The position numbers and the translations under genes are program-made. From Desulfosudaceae bacterium (GTDB lineage: Bacteria > Desulfobacterota > Desulfobacteria > Desulfobacterales > Desulfosudaceae), in contig CAXXDV010000003.1 in assembly GCA_963674745.2 (NCBI GenBank), positions 2,496,001 to 2,560,000 on the forward strand: a stretch of DNA of 64,000 bases, written 5' to 3'. Shown here piece by piece: positions 5,490 to 41,801 of this stretch. The notes beneath the pieces were generated by a model. The model searched no databases, was not told the DNA's origin, and worked only from the letters and a program-made list of their open reading frames with translations. The stretch's first letter is position 1. Every line of letters starts with the position of its first letter.

Positions 5490-6332
5490 TTAATTCTGCT
5501 CATGAGTCGATGTTAAATACATCTTAATATTTTCCGCCTTGGAATAAGTTCCATATAAAGGGATTCCTTGTGGTATAAGGTTTTTGCCTGGCTCAGCATC
5601 CCCAATCATAATTCGGATACTTCCTCTTATATTTGTCGTAGAAGGTTGCTTTTGATCTTTAGGATCAGTTCCAGGCCTTCCAGATACAGATCTCACAGTG
5701 ATAACCCTTGGCCCTATTGATGGCGGTTTAAGGAGGAAGAGGGGACCGTCCATTGGCCATTCTTGGGTTATCCATACAGGTGCTGGTATTTGTTCAGGTG
5801 TAAATTCAAGGCGGATTCTTGTTTGGCCCTTATCGACAACTTCTCCTGTCCAGGAATTTCCTGATTGCTTCAGCGTTACGCTATCAGCAAGATATTTGGG
5901 ATGCCCCATGGTACGTCCGGCCCAAACTGGTACCCACTTGCTTTCCGGCATCGTAAGACAATACCAGCCCGCTTCACCTTTATAGGAACATCGGATCTTA
6001 ATATATGCGAGTTGGTAAGGGGTGAGCGGCCATGGCCCGACCTCAATATTATCCAAAACACCTACCATTACCATGGGATGATCGGGCATATTAAATTGCT
6101 CAGGCAGAAGTTTTCTGTAAAGGGTTAAGTCTTTCGGTTCAACCAGAGCAGTTATATTTTGTTGTGCTCTAAAATTATTTTGCGTTGAAGCGGCCATATG
6201 CATAGCTTTTTCTGCAAGATCGCCTTCAATTATCGAATACTGCCCGTTGGCGGTACGATTGTAAAAGAAAATCGATAAACCTAACAATATAATCAAAGAA
6301 AGACATCCCATTACTAATAGCTTTTTTTTCAT
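5490..6332 (-). CDS. acetoacetate decarboxylase-like (ADC superfamily) protein with N-terminal TM/signal segment
   Basis: GRTMGHPK resembles the ADC GRExxGxPK Schiff-base Lys motif; N-terminal hydrophobic helix. Confidence 0.7.
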   Translation of the reverse strand: MKKKLLVMGCLSLIILLGLSIFFYNRTANGQYSIIEGDLAEKAMHMAASTQNNFRAQQNITALVEPKDLTLYRKLLPEQFNMPDHPMVMVGVLDNIEVGPWPLTPYQLAYIKIRCSYKGEAGWYCLTMPESKWVPVWAGRTMGHPKYLADSVTLKQSGNSWTGEVVDKGQTRIRLEFTPEQIPAPVWITQEWPMDGPLFLLKPPSIGPRVITVRSVSGRPGTDPKDQKQPSTTNIRGSIRIMIGDAEPGKNLIPQGIPLYGTYSKAENIKMYLTSTHEQN

Positions 6333-6410: not shown

Positions 6411-6446
6411 TTGACCATATGTGAATATAATTTGACATTTTGTGAA
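6411..6446 (-). promoter_or_regulatory. tandem-repeat operator, copy 1 (putative AraC site), facing the 6332 to 1 operon
   Basis: Reverse complement reads TTCACAAAATGTCAAATTATATTCACATATGGTCAA. Confidence 0.8.
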
Positions 6447-6560: not shown

Positions 6561-7610
6561 CTAAAAGGAATGATTCTGCCGGTACTCACCGGGGGTAAAA
6601 CCCGTCCATTTTTTAAATGCCCGGTTAAACGCACTTTGCTCGGAGTAGCCGAGCAGGAATGTAATATCGATAATAGGTATGGGGGATTGTTCGAGCAGCT
6701 GTATGGCGTGCTCTCTTTTTACCTTATCCAGTATGTCCTGATATGTTACGCCTTCTTTGTTTAACTTGATCTGAAGGCTTCTTTTGCTCATGGCAAACTG
6801 ACCGGAAATGGTTTCTATGTCTGTCTTCCCGGAAAGCAAATTCTGAATGATGGCGGTTTCAACCTCTCCGGAAAACAGGTCTTCACGATATATCTTTTTT
6901 TGAAGTTTTTCAGCATATGACTTAAGCGTGTCGAGGATTTCAGCATTGGCGACCAGGACAGGAAGATCCAGATACTTTTTATTAAAGGTCATCTTATTTT
7001 CCGGCTGATTGAACAGCACGGGTATTTTAAAAATACGGTCATGCTCTTTCGTGTCTGTTGGAGACGCATGAATAAACTGAACGCTGTCAAGACTGATCTC
7101 TTCCCCGGTCAGGCGGGTTAACAGATTAATATAATATGCAAAATGGCCTTCAATAAATTGTCGAAGTTCATTCATATCGGTAATTTGATATTGCAATTCA
7201 AGAGACAGGGATGCAGTACTTCCTTTCTCGGAGAACACAGGTATGCATAAATCATGCATCAGGGGGTAATACTTGCAGAAATTGGTCAATGCTTCTCCAA
7301 GGGTTGGAGAGTTAAACGTGATCACATGCATGGCGTCCATAACATAATCGAATACTTCTCCTAGGTGCAGCCCTAAATCGGGGTCATGAATGAGATTCAG
7401 GAGTTCAGTTGCCAAATAGTGACACTTATGGGCGGGTAACCGCTCATTAGGGGCCTTAAGTATATCTGGATCAAAACCCATTCTTTTAAAAAATATCAAG
7501 GGATCAATACCAAACCTGTCTCCCTCCTTGATAAGTATATTAATAAAATCAACCGAAACACTCGGTTCTTTTATGGATCGGGTTCGGCTTTCAGTCAACT
7601 CATTCGACAT
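6561..7610 (-). CDS. AraC-family transcriptional regulator (about 350 aa, OruR/VqsM-type N-terminal ligand domain)
   Basis: C-terminal LLGYSEQSAFNRAFKKWTGFTPGEYR; start set by alignment with the paralog at 41695. Confidence 0.93.
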   Translation of the reverse strand: MSNELTESRTRSIKEPSVSVDFINILIKEGDRFGIDPLIFFKRMGFDPDILKAPNERLPAHKCHYLATELLNLIHDPDLGLHLGEVFDYVMDAMHVITFNSPTLGEALTNFCKYYPLMHDLCIPVFSEKGSTASLSLELQYQITDMNELRQFIEGHFAYYINLLTRLTGEEISLDSVQFIHASPTDTKEHDRIFKIPVLFNQPENKMTFNKKYLDLPVLVANAEILDTLKSYAEKLQKKIYREDLFSGEVETAIIQNLLSGKTDIETISGQFAMSKRSLQIKLNKEGVTYQDILDKVKREHAIQLLEQSPIPIIDITFLLGYSEQSAFNRAFKKWTGFTPGEYRQNHSF

Positions 7611-7706
7611 ATTCGATCTCTTCTTGATGGCATGTTGGTCTGTTTTTCTAAAAATACGCCGCACTTATTATTTTCAGGATATCAATCTATATTTTAAATT
7701 CATTTT

Positions 7707-7742
7707 TTCACAAAATGTCAAATCTTATTCACATTTGGTCAA
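7707..7742 (+). promoter_or_regulatory. tandem-repeat operator, copy 2
   Basis: TTCACAAAATGTCAAATCTTATTCACATTTGGTCAA, divergent from the AraC gene. Confidence 0.8.
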
Positions 7743-7943
7743 TACACAGGGTTCAAATATGCTTTAGATTACTGATTCAACCTGACCTTTTTTAAAAGTA
7801 TTAAACAATTCATAAGCTTCAAACCAGGGCAAAAACAGGAAAACGGGAAAAAAATGAAGCCCATATCAACAGAAAAAACGCCTTTAACACAGAGCCGTTC
7901 GTAACGGCTGCTTGACGCTATAAAAGGATGGCGTCAGGCCCGG

Positions 7944-8744
7944 TTGAAAATCTGGCTGGATATGCATATCGTGGGAAGCCATTTAAGACGGTTGGGCCCT
8001 CTGAGAGTTACCATCGGCGGCGGTTCAATGTATCTGAGTCTGCCCTTGTTTCTGTTCGCTCACCTGGTGTTTATTGAACTGCTTTTAAACCGGATATTAA
8101 CGCCGTTACTGGGCCTTCAGAAGCTGAAAACAACCAATTACATCGTCCTCGACCGCCACCGGACAAAAGGGTTGTCCCGGTTTGACAAATTAAATTGTGT
8201 GTTTTGCGGCTATGCCAACGGTATTTCGGTATTATTGAACGAAAAAATCTGTCAACTTGCTGAACGCAAAAAAGAGCTGGGATCCTTTAGTCCATCATAC
8301 AACATTGTTTTGTTTATAATTGTGGCTGTCTTTCTGCCATTTATGGTAGTTGTGAAATTTGCAGGCATGAACATCATTTACGATATCCTTGTGTCACGTC
8401 CCCTTTACATGCATAGAACCCGGACAAAAGATATCAAGCGTAAAATTCTCAGCACCGGTTCTGCTGATATGTTTAATCAGAACACCTTATTTGATATGCT
8501 GATTCTTCATTCAAAAATAATCGTCATCAGGTTGATAGACGCGCTTGAGCAAATTGAATCAGCATGGTGCCCCCTGAAACATAAGAAAGTCGGAGAAAAC
8601 GTTAAGTATCCGTTACACCACCGGAACTTCTTTGAACCGGATGATCTTGAAGCCATGAGAAGTTCGCTTTATCTGAACGGCACTGTTTCAGACAAAAAAC
8701 CCCTGGTTGAAATTAAAAATCCCGCATATCCTTTAGACAGATAA
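7944..8744 (+). CDS. hypothetical membrane protein with LNCxxCxYANG and WCPxKH motifs
   Basis: Hydrophobic segments and conserved-looking Cys motifs; an upstream in-frame ATG at 7854 is cut off by TAA at 7902. Confidence 0.7.
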   Translation: MKIWLDMHIVGSHLRRLGPLRVTIGGGSMYLSLPLFLFAHLVFIELLLNRILTPLLGLQKLKTTNYIVLDRHRTKGLSRFDKLNCVFCGYANGISVLLNEKICQLAERKKELGSFSPSYNIVLFIIVAVFLPFMVVVKFAGMNIIYDILVSRPLYMHRTRTKDIKRKILSTGSADMFNQNTLFDMLILHSKIIVIRLIDALEQIESAWCPLKHKKVGENVKYPLHHRNFFEPDDLEAMRSSLYLNGTVSDKKPLVEIKNPAYPLDR

Positions 8745-8833
8745 ACGCAGTTTCACGACTGCCCGAACCCGCATATTTCATGAAATAACCGGGCTAAATC
8801 CCGCATCTTCCCAGACTTTCTAAAGCTCATTTA

Positions 8834-8869
8834 TTCACAAAATGTCAAATCATATTCACATCTGGTCAA
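8834..8869 (+). promoter_or_regulatory. tandem-repeat operator, copy 3
   Basis: TTCACAAAATGTCAAATCATATTCACATCTGGTCAA. Confidence 0.8.
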
Positions 8870-8943
8870 TACTTAGAGCTCAAATATGTTCTAGGGTAAT
8901 CATACAACCGAGCTTTTTTACAAATTGGAATAAGGAGAGCCTC

Positions 8944-9765
8944 ATGTTTAAAAACAAAACCATACTCATCACCGGCGGGTCATCCGGGCTTGGACTGGGG
9001 TTGGCTCAGGCACTTTTAGAAAGAGGCGCGCGCCTGATTCTTCTGGCCCGCACGCCAAAAAAACTGGAACAGGCAAAAGAGCGCCTGCTGAAAAACGTTC
9101 CCAACGGAAATGTAGATATCGTCCCCGTGGATGTAAGCGACCGCGAGACGTTGCACGAAGCGCTTGACGATGCTCTGAAAAGGCACCCCTCCCTGGACAT
9201 GGTCATCAACAATGCCGGGATATTAAGGGAAGGTTATTTTGAAAAACTGGCGGTAACGGATTTTGAAGAGATGTTCGGCGCCAACTACTTCGGCTGTCTA
9301 TATATAACGCGGATCACCCTGCCTTACTTGAAAAAATCCCGGGGCCGCCTGATCAACGTTGCATCTGTGGCGGGATTAACCGGCGGATTTGGACTTTCCG
9401 CATACGGCTCATCCAAATACGCGCTTGTTGGATTATCTGAAACATTACGCTGCGAACTAAAGCCACAGGGTGTTACCGTCCAGGTGGTATGCCCCCCGGA
9501 ATTTCTATCTCCCATGGTTGAGGAATTGGATACCTATCGGACACCGGAAAACCTGGCGCATACAATTATGATTCCCAGGCTGTCCCTGGATACTCTGGTG
9601 AAAGATACAGTAAAAGGCATTGAAAAAAACAAATTCAGGATTATCCCCGGCTGGCGGACACGATTGATGCTTCTCGGGGCGCAGCACTTTCCCGGTATCA
9701 GCCGTTTTTTTGCCGACCGGGTAATCAAAAAAGCCTATGTCGGTCCCGACCAGCATAATGGTTGA
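8944..9765 (+). CDS. SDR family oxidoreductase (KDSR-like TGGSSGLG type)
   Basis: TGGSSGLG, NNAG, YGSSK; AAGGAG SD before ATG 8944. Confidence 0.9.
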   Translation: MFKNKTILITGGSSGLGLGLAQALLERGARLILLARTPKKLEQAKERLLKNVPNGNVDIVPVDVSDRETLHEALDDALKRHPSLDMVINNAGILREGYFEKLAVTDFEEMFGANYFGCLYITRITLPYLKKSRGRLINVASVAGLTGGFGLSAYGSSKYALVGLSETLRCELKPQGVTVQVVCPPEFLSPMVEELDTYRTPENLAHTIMIPRLSLDTLVKDTVKGIEKNKFRIIPGWRTRLMLLGAQHFPGISRFFADRVIKKAYVGPDQHNG

Positions 9766-9897
9766 AGCGCCCTCATCAGTCTAACGGAAAAGAGAACCAA
9801 AAGGGTTATATGATCTGGATATATACAGGGGATCTCTAAAAAAGCAATTTTTAGAGGTGCCTTACCGTTTTAATTACAAAAAGGAGATAAGATCACA

Positions 9898-10677
9898 ATG
9901 AAAACGGCACTCATTACCGGCGCGTCAAACGGCATTGGCCTTGAACTGGCCCGATTGTTTGCAAAAGACAAGATCAATGTCATTCTGGTCGCACGCAGTA
10001 AAGACAAATTGAACCGTATTGCCAGTGATTTTGAGCAGCAGTATGGCATCAAGGCGTTACCTGTCTCTGCCGACCTTTCCAGGCCCGGGTCGAGTCATGC
10101 GCTTTTTGAAGAAATCAGCCAGAACAATCATATGGATGTCGAGTTTCTTGTCAATAATGCCGGGGTTGGCATTTGCGGCACCATAAATGACACCAATATT
10201 GAACAAACATCAGCTATGCTTCAGCTCAATATGGTGAGCCTGGCGGAACTGACCATGCTGTTTCTGCCGGGGATGAAAAAAAAGAGAAGCGGTCGTATTT
10301 TAAATATCGGTTCTACTGCCGGTTATGTAATGCCTCACGGCTATGAAGTTGCCTATGCCGCAACAAAGTCCTTTGTGGTCAGCTTTTCAGAAGGCCTGCA
10401 TTTTGAACTGAAAGGGACGGGCGTTTCCTGTACCCATTTGAGCCCCGGCCCTACTCAAAGCAGTTTCTTTGACACGGCCGGTGCGAAAAGCGATGCCCGG
10501 TTACGGAACATGCTGATGGACACGAGGGTTGTGGCGCAAAAAGGGTACCGGGCAATGATGGCCGGGAAAAAGCACACGATCCCCGGCATTACCAATAAAG
10601 TGTTTGCATTTCTGGCCAGCCGGGTATCTCCATCTCGGAGACTGGTTTATACCTTATCCGGTGCGTTTGTAAAGTAG
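9898..10677 (+). CDS. SDR family oxidoreductase
   Basis: TGASNGIG, NNAG, YAATK. Confidence 0.92.
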   Translation: MKTALITGASNGIGLELARLFAKDKINVILVARSKDKLNRIASDFEQQYGIKALPVSADLSRPGSSHALFEEISQNNHMDVEFLVNNAGVGICGTINDTNIEQTSAMLQLNMVSLAELTMLFLPGMKKKRSGRILNIGSTAGYVMPHGYEVAYAATKSFVVSFSEGLHFELKGTGVSCTHLSPGPTQSSFFDTAGAKSDARLRNMLMDTRVVAQKGYRAMMAGKKHTIPGITNKVFAFLASRVSPSRRLVYTLSGAFVK

Positions 10678-10854: not shown

Positions 10855-11721
10855 ATGTCGCTATTGTTTGTCGAAGAATCTCATCATCCAGGTGTTCCCG
10901 AAATACAGCGTTTTGATGCCACGTCTGTTTATATTATGGTAAAGCGCCCTTCTTTCTCAGGAAGGGAACGGTTTAAAAAAAAATTGTTGTCCGGCTTTGT
11001 GGAACAGGTCAGGTCTGTTGGATCCGCTTTAAATTATACCGCATTTAAGCAGCATCATCTTGTCAGGAGCGGTGCGTTTGCCGCCATTTCCTATATTGCG
11101 ACTCGAAAGCACTTGAATGTCTCATTGCTGAGCCGCATCCGCGGCCTGACACCCCCGAAGCCGTATCATGTTTCCTTGTTTCCATATTATGACGCGGTGA
11201 TAGAATTTCAATTTGCCGACCGGTTGTCAAATAAACAGATAACAACGATCAAAGACCTTGCCCGTTATCTGGCCGGTAAGTGTAAACGGGTTTCCGTCAT
11301 GGAGAGTAATGTCCGCTATCAGGCATTCGACGATAAGAGCCCTGCCAATAAGAATCCTTTTCATATGGTGTTCATTTCACAGGAGCCATCTCATATTGCA
11401 CGTGAAAAAGCGCAAAAACACTGGATAAGTGATCATGCCGCTTTTGTCGTTAATCATGTCAAGTATACAAAAATGATACGCTATCGGATTTCCCATGCAA
11501 CCCTTGATAAAAAAAGCGCATTTGAAAACAGGTATGGCGGAATCGCGTTTGTAGAATTTAAAGGCCTGCCGGCTTTTATGCGTAACATGCTCAATCCCAA
11601 TGCGGTAAGGCTCAACAATTCAATCGTGCTGGATGAAATGAATTTATCGGCAGAGTCCAGAATTATGCTGATGAAAGAATACGATCTCGGGGCTAAAGGG
11701 AGCGGAAAGGAGGACACCTGA
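10855..11721 (+). CDS. EthD-like (dimeric alpha/beta barrel) two-domain protein
   Basis: YDAVIEFQF, HWISDHA, YGGIAFVEF and DEMN are typical EthD motifs. Confidence 0.65.
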   Translation: MSLLFVEESHHPGVPEIQRFDATSVYIMVKRPSFSGRERFKKKLLSGFVEQVRSVGSALNYTAFKQHHLVRSGAFAAISYIATRKHLNVSLLSRIRGLTPPKPYHVSLFPYYDAVIEFQFADRLSNKQITTIKDLARYLAGKCKRVSVMESNVRYQAFDDKSPANKNPFHMVFISQEPSHIAREKAQKHWISDHAAFVVNHVKYTKMIRYRISHATLDKKSAFENRYGGIAFVEFKGLPAFMRNMLNPNAVRLNNSIVLDEMNLSAESRIMLMKEYDLGAKGSGKEDT

Positions 11722-11745: not shown

Positions 11746-12273
11746 ATGACTGAAGACGCAACCATGAACAATCAGAGCAGGCGATCGTTTTTCAAATCGA
11801 GTTTTAAAATGCTTACCGCCATTGGCCTGGGCGGAATATTTTACAGCGCTGCCAGATTTCTCGGTTCTGATTCGACTCCGGAGACAGGCCATAGCCATGC
11901 TTTTGGTGCCTTTCATCCGGACAATGAACGCATGACCGGATCAGGCGGCGGACTTCGCGCCTCAAAGGCCGCTGACGGTCGATATGAACTTGAGACTGAA
12001 TCCGTCCCCGCAGGCGTTGGCGCCGTTGTGTCTGCAGGAAGCCTGCCCATACTGGTAGTCCACGGGACGAACGGTTTCAGGGTATTTAACGCCACCTGCA
12101 CTCATCTTGGATGCCTTGTGAAATGGGATCCGGCGGCCAACATGTTCATCTGCCCCTGCCACGGCGGAAAATATGATGCAAACGGTCAGGTCATTGCCGG
12201 CCCACCTCCGAGTGCCCTTAAAGAACACACCGTTGCTGAAAAAGACGATATGATCAGAATTGCCATCACATGA
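11746..12273 (+). CDS. Rieske 2Fe-2S protein of a Rieske/cytochrome b complex
   Basis: Tat motif SRRSFFK, CTHLGC, CPCHGGKY, GPPP. Confidence 0.93.
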   Translation: MTEDATMNNQSRRSFFKSSFKMLTAIGLGGIFYSAARFLGSDSTPETGHSHAFGAFHPDNERMTGSGGGLRASKAADGRYELETESVPAGVGAVVSAGSLPILVVHGTNGFRVFNATCTHLGCLVKWDPAANMFICPCHGGKYDANGQVIAGPPPSALKEHTVAEKDDMIRIAIT

Positions 12274-13517
12274 CAAAAAACATAATCGACACCTTTTTAA
12301 ACCGCGTTCGAGTCAGGCTGAAAGCAGCCGGTACTGTAAAAGCGCAGATTTTTTCCCGTTCCACCTTACAGCCGGAGAGCCGGCTTGATTACCTGGCCTA
12401 TTCCGGGACAGTCATTGCGGTACTGCTGGTGATTCAGTTTGCAACGGGCGTGCTGCTTTTACTTCATTATGAACCCTTTCCCTCGCGTGCGTTCTCATCT
12501 CTGCTGACCATCAGGAACGATGTTGAGTACGGACTGTTGTTTTCCAACCTTCATTCCGTGGGTTCCAAGCTGATTATACTGGTGATGTTTATTCACATGT
12601 TCAGGATTATGCTGGTTTCTGCCCACCGCGGCCCACGGTCCCCCCAGTGGTATGTCGGCGTTGGTCTCGCTTTTTTAATGCTTTTTACCGGTTTCTCCGG
12701 ATATCTTCTGCCCTGGTCCCAGCAGTCTTTCTGGGCCTGTGTTGTCGGTACCGAGTCGCTTCGCGTTTTTCCCGTCATTGGAAACACCGCCACATGGCTT
12801 CTACGGGGCGGTTCCGAAGTTAACGGCCTGACCCTGACCAGATTTTACTGGCTTCACATCACCCTGCTCCCCATTTCAATCATATACCTGGCATGGCTGC
12901 ACATAAAAATGGTCTGGAGAACAGGCGTGGCCGGGCCGGCAAAATCTTTTGCGGACGTGGCCACCGAAAATTGCGTGGGCTGCGGCAAATGCCGACAGGT
13001 CTGCTCGTTTAACGCGGTTTCCATGAAAGAGGATGGGGACAAAAAAGACAAACCGCTGATTGATCCTTCCAGATGCAATGGTTGCCGGGCCTGTGTGGAG
13101 GAATGCCCCAACGCCTGCATCTTCCTGTTCAAGGGAACAGAACCGTGCCGGTTGGAGCCCATATTTCCGGATAATATTGTCAGGAGAATGCTTGCGGTCT
13201 TCATTACAGTGGTAGTTCTTTTCGGATTTTCGTATTTCGGCCACGCTTTTCACAAGATCCCGGCCGACCCCATGCTGACACCGGAACGGATAAAGCCCGA
13301 CTGGTATTTCCTGGGGGCGTATCAATTCCTGAAAGCACTGCCAAGCGAAACCTGGGGGATACTGGCAATGCTGGCAATCTGTATCCTGATTGCGATTCTG
13401 CCGATTATTGACAAGTCAGGTTCCAGAAATCCCCGGCGTCGACCTGTATATATGCTGCTTGTTATTGGCGGTATTTCAGGGTTTATCATATTCACCTTCT
13501 GGGGATGGGTTTCCTGA
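12270..13517 (+). CDS. cytochrome b (b6-like N domain plus subunit IV-like C domain) with inserted 2x[4Fe-4S] ferredoxin domain
   Basis: Heme His pairs, GYLLPW, PDWYF Qo motif, CVGCGKCRQVC and CNGCRACVEECP; ATGA overlap with the Rieske gene. Confidence 0.92.
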   Translation: MTKNIIDTFLNRVRVRLKAAGTVKAQIFSRSTLQPESRLDYLAYSGTVIAVLLVIQFATGVLLLLHYEPFPSRAFSSLLTIRNDVEYGLLFSNLHSVGSKLIILVMFIHMFRIMLVSAHRGPRSPQWYVGVGLAFLMLFTGFSGYLLPWSQQSFWACVVGTESLRVFPVIGNTATWLLRGGSEVNGLTLTRFYWLHITLLPISIIYLAWLHIKMVWRTGVAGPAKSFADVATENCVGCGKCRQVCSFNAVSMKEDGDKKDKPLIDPSRCNGCRACVEECPNACIFLFKGTEPCRLEPIFPDNIVRRMLAVFITVVVLFGFSYFGHAFHKIPADPMLTPERIKPDWYFLGAYQFLKALPSETWGILAMLAICILIAILPIIDKSGSRNPRRRPVYMLLVIGGISGFIIFTFWGWVS

Positions 13518-13518
13518 C

Positions 13519-14316
13519 ATGAAAAAATATTTTTTCCTGCTATTCCTCCTGCTCGTCCTGGTTTCAAAAACAACGGCACAGGACAGATTATTTCTGCTCC
13601 AGGACAACTGCATTAAATGCCATCTGTGGTGCGAGACAAAAAGCGGCGAAAACTCGGTTGTCAAATGGAAAAGGAGCGTTCATTTCAGGCCGGATACCGC
13701 CTGCGCCGACTGCCATGGCGGCGATCGGCTTTTATATCTGGATTTTAAAGCCGGACACATGGGAATGCCTGACAGAAACCAATCAGTAGGGATGTGCGAA
13801 CAGTGTCATGAGCAGGCTGTACGTGATTTCATAGGCCGCAAGGTGTCGCAGACAAAAAACAATAAGTGCACGGTAAGCTGCGTTGACTGCCACGGGCATC
13901 ACCAGATTGAAAAACCGGATGCTCCGGCCATGTTCCAAAGAACCTGCCGTAAATGTCATTCTCCGGACAAAGCCGCCGCGATTGCAAACACGATACAAAA
14001 AACAGAATCCCGCCTGGCATTTGTTGAGGCGGAAATAAAGTCCCACGAAACATCCGGACTGCCGGTTCTGACCCCGAAGGAAATGCTGAAAGATATTCAA
14101 CGGCAGTATGCGCGGGGATTTCACAAAAATACGTTTTCAAAACAGGAACCGTTTCTGACTGGAGAATTGTCATATGCAATAGATGATCTTGAAGACCGTT
14201 TGGGCCGTTCAGCCCCGAACCAATGGCATATTCAGGGGTATATGGTCATAGCCTTTCTGGGCCTGATCTGTGTTTTGCTGACGGCCTACTTAGCGACCCT
14301 GAAAAAGAAAGAATAA
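13519..14316 (+). CDS. pentaheme cytochrome c, signal peptide and C-terminal TM anchor
   Basis: CIKCH, CADCH, CEQCH, CVDCH, CRKCH. Confidence 0.9.
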   Translation: MKKYFFLLFLLLVLVSKTTAQDRLFLLQDNCIKCHLWCETKSGENSVVKWKRSVHFRPDTACADCHGGDRLLYLDFKAGHMGMPDRNQSVGMCEQCHEQAVRDFIGRKVSQTKNNKCTVSCVDCHGHHQIEKPDAPAMFQRTCRKCHSPDKAAAIANTIQKTESRLAFVEAEIKSHETSGLPVLTPKEMLKDIQRQYARGFHKNTFSKQEPFLTGELSYAIDDLEDRLGRSAPNQWHIQGYMVIAFLGLICVLLTAYLATLKKKE

Positions 14317-14335
14317 AAAATTTGGGAGGAAAATC

Positions 14336-14674
14336 ATAAACGACACATGCCAAGACAAGACAAACTGCCCCTGGACAGGAAGGATCGCCCTGATCCTCGC
14401 CCTTGTTGCTGTTTTTATGGCGTTTAAGGCCGGGCATTCCTCAAAAATCAACGCCATAACCAGCATCAATGAGATGATAACGGACAAGGTCGTACCCCAG
14501 ATGGCCAGGGCCACCGAAAGGGATGTCATCGGCCATATCTACGATCTGAAACGGACCATGGTTACCCTTGAGGAGATAAAGGAGACCACGGCCAACGAGG
14601 ACGTCAAAGCCATGGTGGACAAAATCCGCAAGGACATTGAGGAACTTAACGTCAAACTCTTTGTGCATGAATAG
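14336..14674 (+). CDS. small single-TM coiled-coil protein, apparent ATA start codon
   Basis: GGAGGA SD 5 nt before ATA at 14336, open in frame to the track ORF 14417..14674; the extension adds TM helix IALILALVAVFMAF. Confidence 0.65.
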   Translation: MNDTCQDKTNCPWTGRIALILALVAVFMAFKAGHSSKINAITSINEMITDKVVPQMARATERDVIGHIYDLKRTMVTLEEIKETTANEDVKAMVDKIRKDIEELNVKLFVHE

Positions 14675-14679
14675 GGGGT

Positions 14680-16545
14680 ATGGCCATGCCTGATAAGGAC
14701 AAGCCGGAAAACATTTTCCAAAAACCGATCAACCGCCGTAATTTTTTAAAAATAAGCGCTGCCGCAGCAGCGGCCGGCGTAATGGGGCCCGGACTTTCAG
14801 GCTGTGCCCCGGAGATTTACCGGGGCCATTACCCGGATGTGCCCGAAAACCATGTCTCGCTTTCGCCCAACGGGAAAAGTGTGCTCATCCTGGGCGGTGG
14901 TTTCGGCGGCATGCACGCGGCCTGCGAACTGCTTGACCGGGGTTTTGAAGTCACGATTATCGAAAAATCAAGCATGCTCGGGGGAAAACTCAAGAGTTGG
15001 CGGGATCCCGGGTTCGGCATCCCGCCCACGGATGATCCCAACTGGAAGGGATATCCCAGGGATCACGGTGCGCACGCGGTGTGGGGGTTTTACAACAACC
15101 TGAGAGAATTCATGGGCAGACACGGCTATAAACTGGCGACCTTCCCCCGGGAATCCACCATGTACAATTTTCTGGATAAAGACGGTTCCCAGGCTGTCAT
15201 GGGTTCTGCACCCACATGGCCCGGCCCCCTGGCAAATCTTCAAAGAGGCCTTGAGACAAAACATGCCATTGAAAAATTAACCGGAGAAGATCCGGGCGCC
15301 ATGCTGTACATGAACAAAATCTTTGGCTTTGACTATGAGAGCAAGAAGCAGCGGGCCTATCTGGACAGCATTTCTTTTCCCGAGTGGGCGCGACTGGTAG
15401 GCATACCGGACAAGCTGATTTATAAGTTCTTCGGTCCCACGTCTGAAATGGCCATGTTCGACCACATCGATAACACCAGCGCGCTCTATATGCTGACAAC
15501 GCTGAGCCTGGGCTCGGGCAGTTATAGGGACATGTGCGTTGATATTTTCACCCACCCTCCCGGCGAAACCTATGCCGAGCCCATTGAGCGCTACATCCTG
15601 GCCAAAGGCGGAAAGATCATTTATGACATGCCGGTCATCAAGGTCAATCATGACGGCAGAAAGATTAAGAGCGTCCTTGCCGGTGATGAAAATTTTGTCC
15701 CGGGTGTGAAAAACTGGAAATGTAATGTCTGCGGATCAACCTTTCCTTCGCCGGCCAAGCCGTTCAGATGCCCGGTATGCGGTGCCCCCATTACCCAGAT
15801 CAGGGCCCTGTCTTCAGGCCCGCCTAAAGAATACCTGGCGGATTATTATGTGGTTGCCATGGACACGCCCGGCGCCAAACAGGTGGTGGCAAAATCGGGG
15901 CTGCTGGGGGACACCTATTTTGACAATATCATGAAGCTGGATGCGACCGGCGTCTATGTTGTCAATTTATGGTATGCCGACTGCAATGCATGGGAGCGCC
16001 GTTTTCCCAAACATGGTGATTTTTTCGCTTCCGGATTCAAGTTTCTGGGCATCACGCTCAACTGGGCGGTTTCTCGAAAATCCAAAGACGGACAAGACAG
16101 ACAATACCTTGTACCGGATTATCAGGGCAAAAACATCAACGTGATTGAAACCCAGATAGCCAATACCGAGCGGGTGGAGAACAAATCAGACGAAGAAATC
16201 GCCCGGCTGGTTCACGAGGAGTTATTGTGCGTGATGCCGGATTTACCCGTGCCGACGGATTTTTATGTCAACCGGTGGGACACCTATTCACCCCAGCGGA
16301 CCGGGTACGAGGCCCTGCGACCCGATATTCAGAGCCCGGTAGACAACCTGTTTTTCATCGGCGACTGGGTTCTGACAAACCATGAAAGCGTTTATATGGA
16401 GAAAACCAACGTGGCCTCAAAAATGGTGACCAACCTGTTACTGGACAAGATCGGACAAAAACAGGGCCGTATGAAAATACTGAAAAGCGGCGATCCCGAC
16501 CTTACGATGAGGGTACTCAAAGCGTTAAACAATCCATACCCGTAA
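14680..16545 (+). CDS. Tat-exported lipoprotein FAD oxidoreductase (amine oxidase/carotenoid desaturase CrtU-PDS-HpnE superfamily) with rubredoxin-like insert
   Basis: RRNFLK...LSGC lipobox, ILGGGFGG, LGGK, DHGAHAVWGFYNNL, CNVC...CPVC insert, NLFFIGDW. Confidence 0.85.
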   Translation: MAMPDKDKPENIFQKPINRRNFLKISAAAAAAGVMGPGLSGCAPEIYRGHYPDVPENHVSLSPNGKSVLILGGGFGGMHAACELLDRGFEVTIIEKSSMLGGKLKSWRDPGFGIPPTDDPNWKGYPRDHGAHAVWGFYNNLREFMGRHGYKLATFPRESTMYNFLDKDGSQAVMGSAPTWPGPLANLQRGLETKHAIEKLTGEDPGAMLYMNKIFGFDYESKKQRAYLDSISFPEWARLVGIPDKLIYKFFGPTSEMAMFDHIDNTSALYMLTTLSLGSGSYRDMCVDIFTHPPGETYAEPIERYILAKGGKIIYDMPVIKVNHDGRKIKSVLAGDENFVPGVKNWKCNVCGSTFPSPAKPFRCPVCGAPITQIRALSSGPPKEYLADYYVVAMDTPGAKQVVAKSGLLGDTYFDNIMKLDATGVYVVNLWYADCNAWERRFPKHGDFFASGFKFLGITLNWAVSRKSKDGQDRQYLVPDYQGKNINVIETQIANTERVENKSDEEIARLVHEELLCVMPDLPVPTDFYVNRWDTYSPQRTGYEALRPDIQSPVDNLFFIGDWVLTNHESVYMEKTNVASKMVTNLLLDKIGQKQGRMKILKSGDPDLTMRVLKALNNPYP

Positions 16546-16687
16546 ACCGGGATGGCACAGTTAGGGCTATGAATAGATTTCCGGACGATTTCCGAGGTCA
16601 GTATATCTAATTCAATCTATTAACAGCGAAAATTAGTCAACTAACAAAGGCTCATTTTTGATTCTTAACATATTTACAGGGGGGATT

Positions 16688-17530
16688 ATGCTTACAGTAG
16701 ATTGGGCCTGGACGTATGCTTTTGGCGCAGGATTCGCGGCCTGCGCGGCAAGACAACTGAAAAAAGAAGAAAAACCGTTTGACAACCAGTGGTATGTTTT
16801 TACGCTTACTTTTTTTTCGGTTTTTTTCGTACCCGCATGTGTTTACCTCTTATGGGAACATCCCCAATGGGAAAGCGCGCAGCTGGCCAAAACGTTTACT
16901 GACCTGCCTGCCTGGCTGGTGACCGGTTATGCGGTCACCAATGTCACGCAGGGGATCCTGGGCTTTTGGGTTTCATTCAAACTGATTAAAAAAGGGAATT
17001 ACTACGCCGCCCACGCCAACTGGATGGCCGCCTGGATCCTCATGTGGTTCCTCGCTTTCTGCGGATGGGATTGTACCGGCTACCAGCGTTGGCTTTATGA
17101 CATGAGTGTAAACAACGGTCAATACTGGACACCCGGCACACACATGGGTGTCCGATTTTTCTATGCCAGCAAGATCTGGTGGACACTGGTGGTCATGGGG
17201 ATCTTTTTCGTCCCCATGCTGATTCACGGCTCTGTCAGCTTCGTCCGCAACGGCTTTAAGGAAGACCCATCCATTCCAGCCGGAACTGCCCCCGGCCCCA
17301 TCAGGATCCTGGCTGTTGTTTTTGGCGCACAATATGTTGTCTGCCTGGGGCTGGCAATCCTGGCCACGCTGTGCGTCATGGGCTTACGGAACCTGACCGG
17401 CAGTACGCTGACCGGTTACCTCATTGGCGTTCCGCTTTTTTCTATAGCAACCTACGTTCTGCTTTTCAGAAGGGGCATGCCCATGAACTTAATTGCCAGG
17501 CAATTGTATGTTAAAGAACCGGGGGAATAG
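16688..17530 (+). CDS. polytopic membrane protein, unknown function
   Basis: About 7 hydrophobic, Trp-rich helices; AGGGGG SD before ATG 16688. Confidence 0.8.
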   Translation: MLTVDWAWTYAFGAGFAACAARQLKKEEKPFDNQWYVFTLTFFSVFFVPACVYLLWEHPQWESAQLAKTFTDLPAWLVTGYAVTNVTQGILGFWVSFKLIKKGNYYAAHANWMAAWILMWFLAFCGWDCTGYQRWLYDMSVNNGQYWTPGTHMGVRFFYASKIWWTLVVMGIFFVPMLIHGSVSFVRNGFKEDPSIPAGTAPGPIRILAVVFGAQYVVCLGLAILATLCVMGLRNLTGSTLTGYLIGVPLFSIATYVLLFRRGMPMNLIARQLYVKEPGE

Positions 17531-17713: not shown

Positions 17714-17729
17714 TGGCACAGATATTGCT
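17714..17729 (+). promoter_or_regulatory. sigma-54 promoter (-24/-12)
   Basis: TGGCACAGATATTGCT (GG-N10-GC). Confidence 0.85.
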
Positions 17730-17812
17730 ATTAAGCACTTAATCAGCTTCGACCGTTTCGGTTTTAAAACGCATATCGTAACAACACTATTTTGGGGAAG
17801 GACGAAAAGATC

Positions 17813-19876
17813 ATGAAAGAAAACGTTTTCAGAAGAATGGTAATCCTTACATTTATTACCCTGACATTGCTGTTTCAATCAGCCGCTGTATTTGCAGTTG
17901 CCCCACCACCCCCGCCCCCGACCTATACCCTGACCGTCAACAACGGCAGTGGTGACGGGGCTTATCCGGCTGATGCGGCAATCAATATTGTTGCCGATGC
18001 AGCTCCGGCCGGCCAGGTGTTTGACCGCTGGGAAGTCGTTTCCGGAGGCGCCCGTATCGCTTCTGTCCGGGTTGCCAGCACCACCGTTACGATGCCGTCA
18101 AATAATGCCACTGTGACCGCGACATACATTGAACCGCAACCGCTTGATTTCAGCTGCCACCCCTATTCCCTGTCAACCTGCGCCATGCCGTACCCGAACG
18201 ACCTTTTTACGCCTGAAGAGATGACAGCTACCTTTTCAGAAGATCTTTTGTCACAGCTCCCTGAAAGTCTATTTCCAACAACCATTCTAAAAGACCGCGA
18301 TGGCTGGTCACCGGTAACGGCCGTATTATTTGAGGTACCCTATAAAATAAACGAATGTGCGCTCCCGCTCAATGGGGATAATGTTCTGAAGGTATTTGAC
18401 ATGGACGACCCCTATGCACCGCCTGTTCCTGTCAGGGTTCGACTCAGCCAGCCTGCCGAAGTAGAGAAGCAAAACTGGCAGATATTGAACCCGGGAGCAA
18501 AGACCCACCAGGTGATTGAAGCATTTCCGCGATCCCGCTTCCCCTTCGGGCACCGGATGGCGGCCGTGCTGACCACCGCCCTGAAGGCAGCCGACGGTAC
18601 CATCCCCACAGCGCCGGAGATACCCGAAGCATATGAAGGCCTGGCCTACGAACTGGCGGGTCGCGGCGTTGATCCGGGTACCATTTTATCCTTGACCGAG
18701 TTTACCATTGCCACGGAAGAAAACACCACCGGCAAGCTGTTTGATATGATCGATGTTATAGAAAATCAGGGTCATCCTGTCAAAGACCTTAAAATAGAAA
18801 GATGGTTAGGCCTGGATGTTGATACAGTCGTGAGAGGCAAAGTCCGCCTGACCAGTTTTCGTGATCTGAATGGCGATGGCATGGTTCACTTTGAAGCGGG
18901 AGATACCGGTAAAGAATACTGGGCTGATTTTGACCTCTTTTTTCCCTCTGAAGCCGATTGGGGGTCGGTGCCTGTCTGTATATACGGACACGGGCTGGAT
19001 GGGGATAAGGAAACAGCTGTTGTCTTCGCGGAATTAAATGCCGATGAAGGGATAGCCACATTGGCCATTGACTGGCCCAACCACGGTACCCGTTCATCAA
19101 AAGACGGCGGTCAAATGAAAACGCTGTTTGCCCCTGAAACCGTAAGTTTTATTACCGGCATGGCCGTTCAGGGTGTTCTTGATTTCCATTCTGTGATGGC
19201 CGCCATACGGGGCAGCCTTGCGGACCTGGACGTGATGCCGCCGCATGAGTGGTATAACTCCTTGAGGCCGGGATATGGCAGGCCGGATATTGATACAGAC
19301 AGGATATATTATATGGGCACCTCCCTGGGCGGTGTTTTCGGGAGCGGCTATGTCGGCAGTGCCACCGGCCTTGACGGCGCTTTTCTGCAGGTCTCCGGCG
19401 TGGGTATTATGCGGACACTGGCGCTTTCCGGCCTGTATGAAAGTATGGGATTTTACAAGATGGTGCCCATGGGCGCCACCCCTTCTGAAACGGCACTTCT
19501 CTTTAACTATGTGCAGAACATCGTGGATGTGGCCGATGGCGCCAACCTGATCCACAATATTCAGGATCCGAATGTCGGCGGGCAGAAAACACCGCTGGTG
19601 GTCCAGTATGGCCTGCATGACAGTATTGTTCACAATGACTCGTCTGAGGCAATGGCTGAAATCGCGGGCCTTAAACAGGTTCCGCCCGTTTGGAGAGACT
19701 TGGCTTATATCCCGAACACATGTGACGATGACGCTCCTTTTGCCCTTGTCCAGGGTACTTGGCCGGTCCCGTCCATTGAGGTTCTTGGACTTGACCTGGC
19801 GATGATCCAGCACATCTCCTTTCTTACACCCAGCGCGCTGTACTATTACGAGAACTGGCTGGCAAATATAAAGTAG
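17813..19876 (+). CDS. secreted lipase-like alpha/beta hydrolase with N-terminal InlB B-repeat-like domain
   Basis: Signal peptide plus PPPPPPP; YTLTVNNGSG...FDRW repeat; PYPND; YGHG; GTSLGG nucleophile; D-S-I-V and late His. Confidence 0.82.
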   Translation: MKENVFRRMVILTFITLTLLFQSAAVFAVAPPPPPPTYTLTVNNGSGDGAYPADAAINIVADAAPAGQVFDRWEVVSGGARIASVRVASTTVTMPSNNATVTATYIEPQPLDFSCHPYSLSTCAMPYPNDLFTPEEMTATFSEDLLSQLPESLFPTTILKDRDGWSPVTAVLFEVPYKINECALPLNGDNVLKVFDMDDPYAPPVPVRVRLSQPAEVEKQNWQILNPGAKTHQVIEAFPRSRFPFGHRMAAVLTTALKAADGTIPTAPEIPEAYEGLAYELAGRGVDPGTILSLTEFTIATEENTTGKLFDMIDVIENQGHPVKDLKIERWLGLDVDTVVRGKVRLTSFRDLNGDGMVHFEAGDTGKEYWADFDLFFPSEADWGSVPVCIYGHGLDGDKETAVVFAELNADEGIATLAIDWPNHGTRSSKDGGQMKTLFAPETVSFITGMAVQGVLDFHSVMAAIRGSLADLDVMPPHEWYNSLRPGYGRPDIDTDRIYYMGTSLGGVFGSGYVGSATGLDGAFLQVSGVGIMRTLALSGLYESMGFYKMVPMGATPSETALLFNYVQNIVDVADGANLIHNIQDPNVGGQKTPLVVQYGLHDSIVHNDSSEAMAEIAGLKQVPPVWRDLAYIPNTCDDDAPFALVQGTWPVPSIEVLGLDLAMIQHISFLTPSALYYYENWLANIK

Positions 19877-20136: not shown

Positions 20137-22227
20137 TTACCTCTTCCAGCCGTAAGGGATACCCAGTTTTTTCATTTTGCTGCGGAGCGTATTGGGTTTT
20201 ATCTGCAGCAGTTCGGCGGCGCCCCCGGGGCCTGCCACTTTTCCATGGGAAAGGGTCAGCGCCTTGTTTATGTGCCTGATAGTGGCTTCTTCCAAACCCG
20301 GGAAATCATCGTCCTGGCTGCCATTTTCCGGGGTGTTTTTATCAGGAGACTGCTGGAAGACATTTTCAAACGATAAGGGCCTTCCCATGCTCAGGATCAG
20401 TTCCCTTTCGATCACATTTTCCAGCTCGCGAACGTTGCCCGGCCACTCATATTCGGTCAATCGCCTCATGGCGCCCGGTGTCAAAGACGGCTTTTCGTGC
20501 AGATTCAGCTCACGGGATCTCTTTTCAATGAAATGATCCACGAGAGCCGGGATATCAGCACGCCTTGCCCGAAGGGGTGGGATTCTGATGGGGAAAACGT
20601 TCAGGCGGAACCACAAATCCTCCCGGAACTCCCTGGATGCAACCAGTTCCTCGAGATTGCGGTGGGTGGCGGCAATGATGCGGATGTTGACCGGTATGGT
20701 GTCCTTCCCGCCGACACGTTGAATAACTTTATGTTCAATCACCCGGAGCAGGCGGACCTGAACCGGGGGAGGCAGTTCCCCGATCTCATCCAGAAAGACG
20801 GTTCCGTTACTGGCCCTTTCAAAGTGGCCTTTTTTCAGGTTTGTTGCGCCGGTAAAGGCCCCTTTTTCGTGGCCGAACAGTTCGCTGTCCACAAGGGTAT
20901 CCGGGATGGCGCCGCAATTGACCTTAATCAAGGGGGCGTCTTTGCGTGAAGATTCCAGGTGAATATAATTTGCCACCACCTCCTTGCCAACACCGGTTTC
21001 GCCCAGCAGCAATACGGGACTGTCCTGCCCGGCAACGAGGCGGGCGTTGTCCACAACCCCTTTCAGGCCAAGGCCGGCCCCGACTATGGTCTGATTCAGA
21101 TTATCCTTCAGTTCTTCGTGCAGGTTTTTATTTTCAGCTTCAATGATGTTCTTCAGCCGGATGACCTCACGGTGTTTGATATTGTTTGAAAGGGCCAGAA
21201 CGAAAGGATCATGGAGCATTTCAAAAAGCTTTTTGTGCTCTGCTTTGTAGCGACCCTTTCCTTCCAGCCCTACCAGCGCAATACCCACAAGCTTTTTCTT
21301 GTGAATGAGGGGCATGGCAATAAGCGAAAAGTCATTTCCGAATATTTTGGTATGTTGATGTGCTACAGGGTGGCGTTCGGGATTGTTTATTATAAGTGTT
21401 TTAGGAGGGTCCCCAACACCCATGAATTGGGGGTCTTCCGAGACATTCAGGACCGGGAGAAGGGAATCCAGCTTTGAAAAAAAGAAGCCATAGTGCTCGG
21501 CCAGCACACGTTCTGACTGCAATTCCGGCTCTGTCTGCCAGACATGGAGCACGTCCGCAGGCAAAAACCGGCTGAGGTATTGAGCGCAATGCGTGACCCC
21601 GGTTTTAAGGTCTAAATGGCCGCACAACCGCCGTGTGACCTGTCGGAAGAATTCGTTTTTATCAGCCACGGGCTCTTTTTGGGAAGGGTGAAGCTTTTTC
21701 CTGTCGTAATCTTTAATGAGTGCGTCCGCCACCAGTTGAAGGGGCTCTCTCACAGGCGTGAGCAGGCGGGTGTGTTCTTCCGTGAATTTATCCTTTTCGT
21801 CAGCGATGATCATTGCGTTGGCATAAGAACCCTCAGCGTTTTTGAAAATAATATACACGGCTGACCAGTCAAACAATCTGGCACGTTCAGAGATTGACGT
21901 CCCGACGATGTCCCTTTCCGGATGATTTATAACCCAGATATCGGGGTTGTCGGCACTGCATGCCAGGTCAATTATCTCCTGGGGTTGTTCGTACATGAAA
22001 TTTGTTTTTTCCGCCCCTGTGCTCACGGCCTGGGCGATAATCCTGACCAGGCGAAGATCATGATGATTATGAAAGATGCTTATTTTCGTCAGAGGAGCGA
22101 ATTCTGAAATATAGTTGAAAATATCAAAAAGCGCTTCTTCGATGTTGCCCTCTTCCAGGACACGCCGCCTGACCTTATTCAATAATTGATCGGAATCCAT
22201 TTTTATCATCGGTGAGTGCTCATCCAT
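20137..22227 (-). CDS. sigma-54 enhancer-binding protein (two GAF-like domains, AAA+, Fis HTH)
   Basis: [31 protein letters not shown]. Confidence 0.95.
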
Positions 22228-26821: not shown

Positions 26822-26857
26822 TTCACAAATTGTCAAATCATATTCACTTATGGTCAA
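26822..26857 (+). promoter_or_regulatory. tandem-repeat operator, copy 4
   Basis: TTCACAAATTGTCAAATCATATTCACTTATGGTCAA. Confidence 0.78.
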
Positions 26858-41765: not shown

Positions 41766-41801
41766 TTCACAAAATGTCAAATCATATTCACATTTGGTCA
41801 A
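41766..41801 (+). promoter_or_regulatory. tandem-repeat operator, copy 5, upstream of the GRE operon
   Basis: TTCACAAAATGTCAAATCATATTCACATTTGGTCAA. Confidence 0.8.

Follow-up and report, generated by a model that had tools for sequence, protein, structure and literature searches.

A conserved five-gene cluster in a Desulfosudaceae bacterium joins a predicted Rieske protein and ferredoxin-inserted cytochrome b to a putatively exported flavoenzyme

We analyzed a 64,000-nt window of DNA from a Desulfosudaceae bacterium (assembly GCA_963674745.2, contig CAXXDV010000003.1; all coordinates are those of this window) and focused on a putative redox gene cluster at 11746–16545. The five genes of this cluster are predicted to encode a Rieske protein, a cytochrome b, a pentaheme cytochrome c, a small protein, and a flavoenzyme with a signal for twin-arginine translocation (Tat), and together they form the conserved unit, as judged from gene predictions and comparison across genomes. 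Their predicted arrangement is not due to chance, because it recurs in eight other genomes, with gene order kept in seven of them. We tentatively interpret the five genes as one membrane-bound electron-transfer module in which the flavoenzyme would be a periplasmic dehydrogenase or desaturase feeding the Rieske/cytochrome b pair, an interpretation that we hold with somewhat less than even confidence.

Six open reading frames (ORFs) were listed on the forward strand within 11746–17530, and a first-pass annotation of the same DNA had placed all six in one respiratory module and described tight coupling. The genes are present where it placed them, with ORFs, junctions, and Pfam domains in agreement, and most of the coupling holds. 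An ATGA overlap joins the Rieske stop codon to the cytochrome b start, 1 nt separates the cytochrome b stop from the cytochrome c ATG at 13519, and a 5-nt spacer lies between the end of the small ORF (14674) and the flavoprotein start (14680). The 19-nt gap given for the remaining junction is less secure, as it depends on taking ATA 14336 as a start codon. The sixth gene, which encodes a membrane protein, falls outside the unit: a 112-nt spacer separates it from the flavoprotein gene, and it is neither coupled to the module nor conserved beside it. Coordinates are collected in Table 1.

Table 1. Predicted genes of the five-gene cluster and of its surroundings, in coordinates of the 64,000-nt window.
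Feature	Position	Strand	Description
Rieske [2Fe-2S] subunit	11746–12273	+	175 aa; PF00355 E 1.9e-11; twin-arginine N-terminus SRRSFF
Cytochrome b	12270–13517	+	415 aa; fused b6-like and subunit-IV-like parts; 7 helices
Pentaheme cytochrome c	13519–14316	+	265 aa; N-terminal signal peptide; C-terminal hydrophobic helix 243–261
Small single-helix protein	14336–14674	+	~80-aa conserved domain ending ..VKLFVHE
Tat-exported lipoprotein flavoenzyme (predicted)	14680–16545	+	621 aa; amine-oxidase/phytoene-desaturase superfamily
Membrane protein, unknown family	16658–17530	+	Start probably Met11 (16688)
Two short-chain dehydrogenase/reductase (SDR) genes	8842–10677	+	adh_short 3.4e-51 and 6e-44; accessory, lineage-variable
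Operator-like 27-nt box ahead of the two SDR genes that precede the module	8834–8860	+	Pattern search

The distribution of the cluster across genomes was narrow and consistent. A true ortholog of the flavoprotein was present in three of 41 close relatives, this genome counted, and in one of 401 genomes sampled evenly across the phylum, which was this genome itself. Within a sample of 401 genomes of the order, nine genomes from three families carried the flavoprotein (E <= 1e-270). The cytochrome b had matches at E <= 1e-30 in 90 of these order genomes; 81 matched only the b6-like N-terminal part (residues ~20–232, E 1e-31 to 1e-40), and the nine genomes with the flavoprotein, and no others, had matches extending across the insert into the C-terminal part (E 1e-117 to 1e-147; up to query residues 1–415). 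Co-occurrence of the flavoprotein with the inserted cytochrome b was 9/9 versus 0/392. Searches of the flanking DNA with tblastn recovered the order Rieske, cytochrome b, cytochrome c, small gene, and flavoprotein, all contiguous, in eight of the nine genomes. In the ninth (G714), which is assembled in 500 contigs, a short contig carrying Rieske and cytochrome b breaks off after residue 158 of cytochrome c, and the flavoprotein lies on a separate contig with a GDSL-lipase-like ORF before it. Synteny between the flavoprotein and the Rieske/cytochrome b genes, on which the first-pass annotation had staked its proposal, is therefore upheld.

Further candidate pairs were found at the level of protein clusters. 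Eleven pairs of flavoprotein and inserted-cytochrome-b clusters, one of them from this genome, agree in the size of their longest contig, which suggests that the paired clusters share contigs. The accessory genes around the module are variable. An SDR gene lies directly upstream of the Rieske gene in three of the eight other genomes (G002, G673, and G648), TetR regulators adjoin the module in four, and a 2-hydroxyglutaryl-CoA-dehydratase-D-like gene is directly downstream of it in three; an exported alpha/beta hydrolase was seen at the module locus of one genome and AMP-binding enzymes at those of two. Overall, the comparative case that the five predicted proteins work together is solid.

The Rieske protein contains both cluster-binding boxes, CTHLGC at residues 118–123 and CPCHG at 136–140, which correspond to the CxHxGC and CxCHG patterns. 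Its orthologs lie upstream of cytochrome b in all eight other genomes. NCBIfam models for b6f and bc1 Rieske proteins match it partially and all under their cut-offs (for PetC, 70.8 versus 250 bits).

Cytochrome b differs from its known relatives by an internal iron-sulfur domain. Pfam matches occur in the order Cytochrome_B (residues 40–218), Fer4 dicluster models (227–288), and Cytochrom_B_C (331–412), with two CxxCxxCxxxC motifs at residues 235–245 and 269–279. Seven residues of interest are invariant in a 30-sequence alignment: H95, H109, H196, and H211, the two pairs of predicted heme ligands, and P343, W345, and Y346. The motif of the Qo (quinol-oxidation) site is PDWY, a PxWY form. A cytochrome b profile matched the complex III cytochrome b of Aquifex aeolicus (6KLS_B) with E 6.5e-78 in two pieces, profile 8–227 aligning to 6KLS_B 5–232 and profile 283–417 to 6KLS_B 231–367. 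Because the alignment breaks exactly at the iron-sulfur domain, where the 6KLS_B chain is continuous, this domain is an insertion of ~55–60 residues in the D-E loop, and the protein is thus predicted to carry a 2x[4Fe-4S] ferredoxin domain between helices D and E. The D-E loop of bc1 and b6f complexes of known structure lies on the electronegative (cytoplasmic) side, above heme bH. Profile alignment taken with this known topology agrees with the cytoplasmic location that had been proposed for the ferredoxin domain, and by the same alignment the insert occupies the face where the Qi (quinone-reduction) site belongs.

Structure prediction gave a consistent picture. The AF2 model of cytochrome b (pLDDT 88.8) has seven long helices and a folded insert (blocks 79–92), and its best Foldseek matches were complex III cytochromes b, with TMt up to 0.79. 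The closest solved relatives of the insert in a profile search were polyferredoxin MvhB, FwdF, and RnfB. The protein did not reach the cut-offs of the cytochrome b6f subfamily models (NF002990, 151.5 versus 325 bits; TIGR01156, 48.2 versus 127) or of the ExtP equivalog (NF040969, 168.3 versus 290 bits). The PDWY motif has been tied to menaquinone and low-potential Rieske proteins (Kao and Hunte 2014, PMC4122944).

The predicted cytochrome c has five CxxCH motifs, at residues 31, 62, 93, 121, and 143, and weak Pfam matches to Cytochrom_c3_2 and C7. Orthologs with 34%–43% identity sit between cytochrome b and the small gene in seven genomes, and the eighth other genome has a partial copy after cytochrome b, at the contig end.

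The small gene that follows belongs to no Pfam or NCBIfam family, with a match to DUF2175 below threshold. Its seven orthologs (39%–54% identity) conserve the helix and a domain of ~80 residues ending VK(L/I/V/M)(F/Y)V(H/N)E. Because all seven place an ATG upstream of the conserved helix, the helix-coding part of the predicted gene is real as a family. In this genome, the start is less regular. The start assigned at first pass, 14336, is an ATA that lies 6 nt after a Shine-Dalgarno-like GGGAGG; the nearby ATG 14347 is shifted one base out of the reading frame; and the first in-frame ATG, GTG, or TTG is ATG 14417, use of which would drop the helix (14384–14425). The gene may therefore use a non-canonical start here or have a true lesion of one base, or the assembly may have an indel at this point. 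Of three DNA sequencing runs compared with the window, one gave a short-read contig without any difference over 13400–15400, although this contig may stem from the source sample, and a second has a gap at 14289–14355. Since basic residues precede the helix, the positive-inside rule places the conserved domain probably in the periplasm. Complex prediction with flavoprotein residues 45–621 and small-protein residues 31–112 scored 0.00 in both runs, which counts neither for nor against binding.

The flavoprotein matched Amino_oxidase (PF01593; E 6.2e-32, 111.9 bits versus a gathering threshold of 19.8), TAT_signal (4.9e-7), and NAD_binding_8 in Pfam. It has GGGFGG at residues 71–76, corresponding to the FAD-binding GxGxxG pattern, and a lipobox, LSGC. 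Its best NCBIfam models were desaturase equivalogs, and it missed the cut-offs of HpnE (94.9 versus 283 bits), ZDS (88.6 versus 622), and phytoene desaturase (PDS; 55.2 versus 569). The top match of a 39-sequence profile was rice PDS (5MOG, E 3.9e-33), and the next family comprised amine and L-amino-acid oxidases, with a best E of 1.2e-14. Foldseek ranked 5MOG first for the AF2 model as well (pLDDT 90.2; E 8.6e-26, TMt 0.82, 18% identity), with monoamine oxidases at ~0.67. Compared with ~13 residues in PDS, the flavoprotein has a 57-residue insert that holds C348, C351, C364, and C367. These four cysteines are invariant in the 39 sequences, and the Cys4 motif was found in 93 of 94 family members. 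The flavoprotein matched RUBY_RBDX with E 1.2e-5 and 25.1 bits, under the cut-off of 26.5, and we predict a family-specific rubredoxin-like or zinc-ribbon-like site, iron and zinc being indistinguishable from sequence.

Export of the flavoprotein appears to be a property of the family. The 94 clusters of this family were returned by a word-indexed protein search, on which the family sizes given here rest, and no characterized member was among the names returned for them. We separated near homologs (35 clusters at >= 53% identity, that is, at least 53%) from far homologs (57 Met-starting clusters, 34%–45% identity). An RR motif was present in 34 of the 35 near homologs, and a cysteine 8–40 residues after it likewise in 34 of 35; far homologs had the RR motif in 51 of 57 clusters and such a cysteine in only four. 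The RR motif across near and far homologs therefore points to a Tat-exported family, of which the subfamily found here would consist of lipoproteins. TatC is encoded in this genome, and the export anticipated in the first-pass annotation is supported by these patterns. The desaturases HpnE, ZDS, and PDS are not known to have an export signal and act from the cytoplasmic or stromal side.

We viewed the gene neighborhoods of 19 further loci, most with flavoproteins of 33%–44% identity. None of the 176 ORFs of at least 70 aa at these loci contained a CxxCH motif. Neighbors of the distant homologs included genes for fatty-acid desaturase, steroid-5-alpha-reductase-like, fatty-acid hydroxylase, lipase, and SDR proteins. 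Because of the PDS-like fold and these lipid-type neighborhoods, which are the sole basis for the assignment, we propose that the substrate is probably hydrophobic; the lipid or other hydrophobic substrate named at first pass can be kept only in this inferred form.

Several gene sets recurred among the distant loci. On four Bacteroidota-like contigs (L035–L038), a gene of the acetoacetate decarboxylase (ADC) family ends at or overlaps the flavoprotein start, which suggests translational coupling, and on L035 an SDR gene lies ahead of both. On L023, an ADC-like gene follows the flavoprotein gene. Five Leptospira-like loci (L025, L028, L031, L033, and L034) have the distant Tat-flavoprotein inside a conserved set encoding a TRL-like lipoprotein, a 360-aa lipoprotein, and Lnb-like, steroid-5-alpha-reductase-like, fatty-acid desaturase, ankyrin-repeat, and Lgt proteins; this set may be a lipid or lipoprotein remodeling locus. 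Three proteobacterial-type contigs have, as a neighbor of the flavoprotein, a member of a Pfam-less family that is also encoded at 7944–8744 of the window.

The host genome encodes DsrA above the cut-off. COX1 was not found in this genome, which is 99.96% complete and so appears to be without a heme-copper oxidase, and no second bc-type cytochrome b was found in it at E <= 1e-30. To our knowledge, complexes of the Rieske/cytochrome b type have not been regarded as a feature of sulfate reducers.

The mechanism we propose would place the lipid-anchored flavoenzyme, with its FAD and Cys4 metal site, in the periplasm together with the small-protein domain, the anchored pentaheme cytochrome c, and the Rieske domain. 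The membrane part would be a menaquinol-type (PDWY) cytochrome b, whose cytoplasmic D-E loop would hold two [4Fe-4S] clusters beside the high-potential b heme. The substrate of the flavoenzyme would be a hydrophobic compound, oxidized on the periplasmic side of the inner membrane, and electrons would pass from FAD through the Cys4 site and the c hemes to the Rieske centre. Because the host has no heme-copper oxidase to accept electrons from cytochrome c, we propose that the Rieske/cytochrome b core would run in the reverse (confurcating) sense, with menaquinone reduced at Qo. Since electrons from the Rieske side could reduce menaquinone at Qo only with a second electron arriving via heme bL, we suggest the cytoplasmic clusters as its source: menaquinone would take one Rieske electron and one low-potential cytoplasmic electron, passed through the [4Fe-4S] clusters and b hemes, and the membrane potential would assist delivery of this inward-sourced low-potential electron.

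Parts of this scheme have precedents. In flavoprotein amine oxidoreductases related to NicA2, a Tat signal combined with an adjacent cytochrome c gene marks dehydrogenases that use cytochrome c, a rule for which 25 enzymes were tested (PMC12224317). By analogy with this precedent, the pentaheme cytochrome may serve as the oxidant of the flavoenzyme, which would then act as a dehydrogenase or desaturase. For b6f, it has been suggested that ferredoxin feeds in electrons from the cytoplasmic side (PMC5600118). The more specific idea of a confurcating or bifurcating Rieske/cytochrome b machine, in which the low-potential branch would end in the built-in [4Fe-4S] clusters instead of or beside Qi and the high-potential branch would be dedicated to the exported flavoenzyme, seems to us fairly unlikely.

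Several observations weigh against the proposed module or parts of it. Three flavoproteins of the near subfamily (L015, L020, and L021; 57%–63% identity) have no cytochrome c gene directly upstream; on two short metagenome contigs with 57%–59% identical flavoproteins, this position is taken by an SDR gene (L020) or an unassigned ORF. Linkage of the flavoprotein to a cytochrome is thus frequent, not obligatory, and the contigs concerned are short. The small gene has no canonical start ahead of its helix in this genome. The direction of electron flow is pure inference, and reverse operation has been linked to the APWY clade of cytochrome b, not to PDWY (Kao and Hunte, PMC4122944). The rule that combines a Tat signal with a cytochrome c gene was validated, in the available text of that work, for NicA2-related clades with soluble cytochromes c only, not for PDS-like enzymes or pentaheme cytochromes (PMC12224317). 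Finally, the lipid-type neighbors belong to distant subfamilies (33%–44% identity) without nearby cytochrome genes, so other substrates may apply to the enzyme described here.

Among other explanations, the strongest reverses the flow and treats the flavoenzyme as a terminal reductase. Menaquinol would be oxidized at Qo in the forward direction, and electrons would move from the Rieske protein through the pentaheme cytochrome c and the flavoenzyme to an extracytoplasmic acceptor, for example a conjugated C=C. The second electron would pass from the b hemes through the cytoplasmic [4Fe-4S] clusters to a cytoplasmic acceptor, a quinol-based bifurcation that would build membrane potential. We regard this explanation as somewhat unlikely, although the synteny and co-occurrence data support it equally. 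The forward direction is the normal mode of Rieske/cytochrome b complexes, and respiratory systems are known in which membrane cytochromes supply electrons to an exported flavin reductase. In anammox bacteria, Rieske/cytochrome b complexes have been proposed to send the second electron to NAD(P)+ (PMC12954380). However, the potential of the acceptor would have to exceed that of a menaquinol-type Rieske centre, and the neighboring genes suggest no such substrate. Characterized PDS, ZDS, HpnE, and amine oxidoreductases oxidize their substrates, and a large driving force would be needed to bring an electron to low-potential clusters on the inner side in opposition to the membrane potential.

Two further explanations keep the flavoenzyme as an oxidant but change its substrate, and we consider both improbable. 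In one, the enzyme would anaerobically desaturate a lipid of the cell's own membrane or lipoproteins, with Rieske/cytochrome b as a mere electron sink. The PDS-like fold is compatible with this role, as PDS, ZDS, and HpnE are biosynthetic, and on Leptospira-like contigs the distant homologs are surrounded by genes for Lgt, fatty-acid desaturase, and Lnb-like and steroid-5-alpha-reductase-like proteins. A patchy spread (9/401 genomes of the order, and 1/401 in the phylum sample, the query genome itself) argues against it, however, as do TetR, AraC-box, and SDR neighbors that look catabolic and the heavy investment that a bc-type complex would represent for a low-flux biosynthetic step.

The other would retain the wiring of the proposed module but supply it with electrons from a polar amine or another small soluble substrate, by NicA2-like chemistry. 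The flavoprotein is in the Amino_oxidase Pfam family, monoamine and L-amino-acid oxidase folds come after PDS in Foldseek, and the precedent for a Tat signal with cytochrome c concerns amines. Yet PDS is clearly the best match in both comparisons (TMt 0.82 versus ~0.67 for monoamine oxidases; profile E 3.9e-33 versus 1.2e-14), the enzyme is predicted to be lipid-anchored, and neighbors elsewhere are of lipid type. It is very improbable that the five genes are mere neighbors without a physical or electron-transfer link: the three near-subfamily contigs without adjacent cytochrome genes would fit such a view, but co-occurrence of 9/9 versus 0/392, a gene order kept across three families of the order, and translational coupling, seen as an ATGA overlap and as spacers of 1 and 5 nt, all speak against it.

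Genes upstream of the module are associated with a repeated sequence. The repeated operator reported in the first-pass annotation was confirmed as a 27-nt box that occurs six times in the window versus zero expected, at 6420–6446 on the reverse strand and at 7707–7733, 8834–8860, 26822–26848, 41766–41792, and 56443–56469 on the forward strand. The box is part of a 98-nt repeat, with 7700–7797 and 8827–8924 being 80% identical. Operons under the box comprise an ADC-like/SDR/hydrolase/START operon, the 7944 gene, the SDR-Rieske operon, and operons for a thiamine-pyrophosphate (TPP) enzyme, a glycyl-radical enzyme, and another SDR. AraC-type regulators at 6561–7664 and 40640–41695 adjoin boxes. 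Together, the box-linked operons look like one regulon for a catabolic pathway of which the module is a part. The box at 8834–8860 contains the ATG of the first SDR ORF, whose adh_short domain starts only at residue 39, and Met35 (8944) is probably the true start. Between the SDR genes and the Rieske gene, the ORF at 10855–11721 had been labeled EthD, a label that was returned by ESM Atlas alone (score 0.92), with no Pfam or NCBIfam match at E <= 0.01.

Two genes farther upstream were considered as partners of the flavoprotein and rejected. The reading frame at 7855–8744 encodes a membrane protein family without a Pfam model, with invariant C85, C88, C209, H213, H225, and H226. In this copy, the upstream ATG at 7855 is followed by an in-frame TAA at 7902–7904, and the probable start is ATG 7961. 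Homologs of the 7944–8744 protein lie directly upstream of flavoprotein homologs on L023, L026, and L027, but it is not a universal partner: full-length copies occur, among the 401 order genomes, only here and in G514, which has no flavoprotein, and the eight other module genomes have no copy. A link through acetoacetate decarboxylase-like proteins was rejected as well, as the ADC-like gene of the window (5490–6332) had no BLASTP match at 1e-3 to the flavoprotein-adjacent ADC genes.

Downstream of the module, the membrane protein at 16658–17530 has 229 representative homologs in a library of 1.84 billion proteins, mostly aligning from query residue 11, and a paralog with 71% identity on contig C1 of this genome. 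We rejected it as a subunit, since it stands beside the module at no other locus and occurs in 12 of 41 close relatives, nine of which have no flavoprotein ortholog. Neither this gene, nor the EthD-like gene, nor the lipase-like gene at 17792–19876 was found at any of the other module loci. The lipase-like gene is unlikely to be a member of the operon, given its own perfect sigma-54 promoter at 17714–17729 and its absence from the other loci. This promoter reads TGGCAC-N5-TTGCT and precedes what is predicted to be an exported VolA/Pla-1-like lipase; a sigma-54 activator gene (20137–22227, reverse strand) lies beside it, and activators of the same type are encoded at 47231–49294 and 51210–53279. 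The first strong terminator is at 19912.

Elsewhere in the window, 42143–45888 encodes a 906-aa glycyl-radical enzyme of the PFL2/glycerol-dehydratase (eliminase) type together with its activase, with a 27-nt box upstream; the enzyme falls under every equivalog cut-off. A HipA-like kinase gene (37537–38796, reverse strand) and a DDE transposase gene (49561–51006, forward strand) break up the run of catabolic genes.

If the proposed wiring is true, the module would be a natural test case for coupling the Qo reaction to cytoplasmic iron-sulfur carriers, an idea that has been put forward for anammox complexes and for ferredoxin input to b6f and has been hard to test so far. It would also extend Tat-exported, cytochrome-c-linked flavoprotein dehydrogenases from aerobic amine catabolism to a PDS-like enzyme in strict anaerobes, and would imply that in anoxic sediments some compound, probably a hydrophobic one, undergoes a redox step outside the cytoplasm. 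If confurcation occurs, a strict anaerobe without a heme-copper oxidase could perform extracytoplasmic C-C oxidation on a lipid-like compound near 0 mV, and the electrons from that oxidation would still reach menaquinone and sulfate reduction.

Every predicted component is of a known kind, yet no curated family model accommodates them. We found no description of the five-gene combination in open-access papers and preprints, in agreement with the first-pass view that it is a candidate undescribed complex. Its claim to novelty is narrower in one respect, as pairing a Tat-exported flavoprotein with cytochrome c is already an established principle in NicA2-type dehydrogenases (PMC12224317). Systems of the NicA2/Pnao type share with the module a Tat signal on a flavoprotein of the amine-oxidase superfamily that is encoded in one operon with a c-type cytochrome (PMC12224317); here, the small gene stands between the cytochrome and flavoprotein genes within the coupled run. 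They differ in having a soluble, Sec-exported CytC from which electrons presumably enter the respiratory chain (PMC12224317), whereas the module combines a PDS-like fold, a Cys4 insert, an anchored pentaheme cytochrome c, and a Rieske/cytochrome b partner in a host without a heme-copper oxidase. With regard to the NicA2-related clades, PDS ranks ahead of the amine oxidases by fold and by profile. Plant-type PDS, ZDS, HpnE, and CrtU (COG3349-like) resemble the flavoenzyme in FAD Rossmann fold and overall architecture, but the enzyme here has a Tat signal, a lipobox, and the Cys4 insert, and no carotenoid or hopanoid genes were found near the module.

The Rieske/cytochrome b core shares with bc1 and b6f complexes the Rieske boxes, the four heme-ligand histidines, and the PxWY form of the Qo motif, the closest solved structure being that of Aquifex aeolicus (6KLS). 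In contrast to these complexes, it has the 2x[4Fe-4S] insert in the D-E loop, a C-terminally anchored pentaheme cytochrome c in place of c1, f, or diheme c, and ties to an exported flavoenzyme and a small extra subunit. No cysteine for heme ci is visible in the N-terminal region of the sequence. The Geobacter ExtO/ExtP/ExtQ (Cbc6-type) cluster also combines a Rieske protein, a b-type cytochrome, and a multiheme cytochrome c (PMC5877670), and ExtP (NF040969) is the best NCBIfam match for the N-terminal half of cytochrome b, yet under the cut-off, so the protein is not a member. The cytochrome b of the Geobacter cluster is split into ExtP and ExtQ, and the available part of the paper describes neither a ferredoxin insert nor a flavoprotein for this cluster, which is itself functionally uncharacterized (PMC5877670).

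Two known groups come nearest to the predicted use of iron-sulfur centres. In the PDWF-FeS clade of Kao and Hunte, cytochrome b is reused in its entirety, Qo motif included, together with extra iron-sulfur centres (PMC4122944). By the description in that paper, this clade is set apart by its PDWF motif, its fusion to 4Fe-4S/MvhD or ferredoxin-flavin reductase domains, and its occurrence in other phyla (PMC4122944), whereas the protein here has PDWY, an internal insert, and a true Rieske partner. The available text of Kao and Hunte lists no form of cytochrome b like the inserted one, although it does take note of the principle of an iron-sulfur-bearing cytochrome b (PMC4122944). The anammox Rieske/cytochrome b complexes, which have extra cytoplasmic redox subunits, resemble the module in that their low-potential branch is proposed to feed a cytoplasmic acceptor (PMC12954380).

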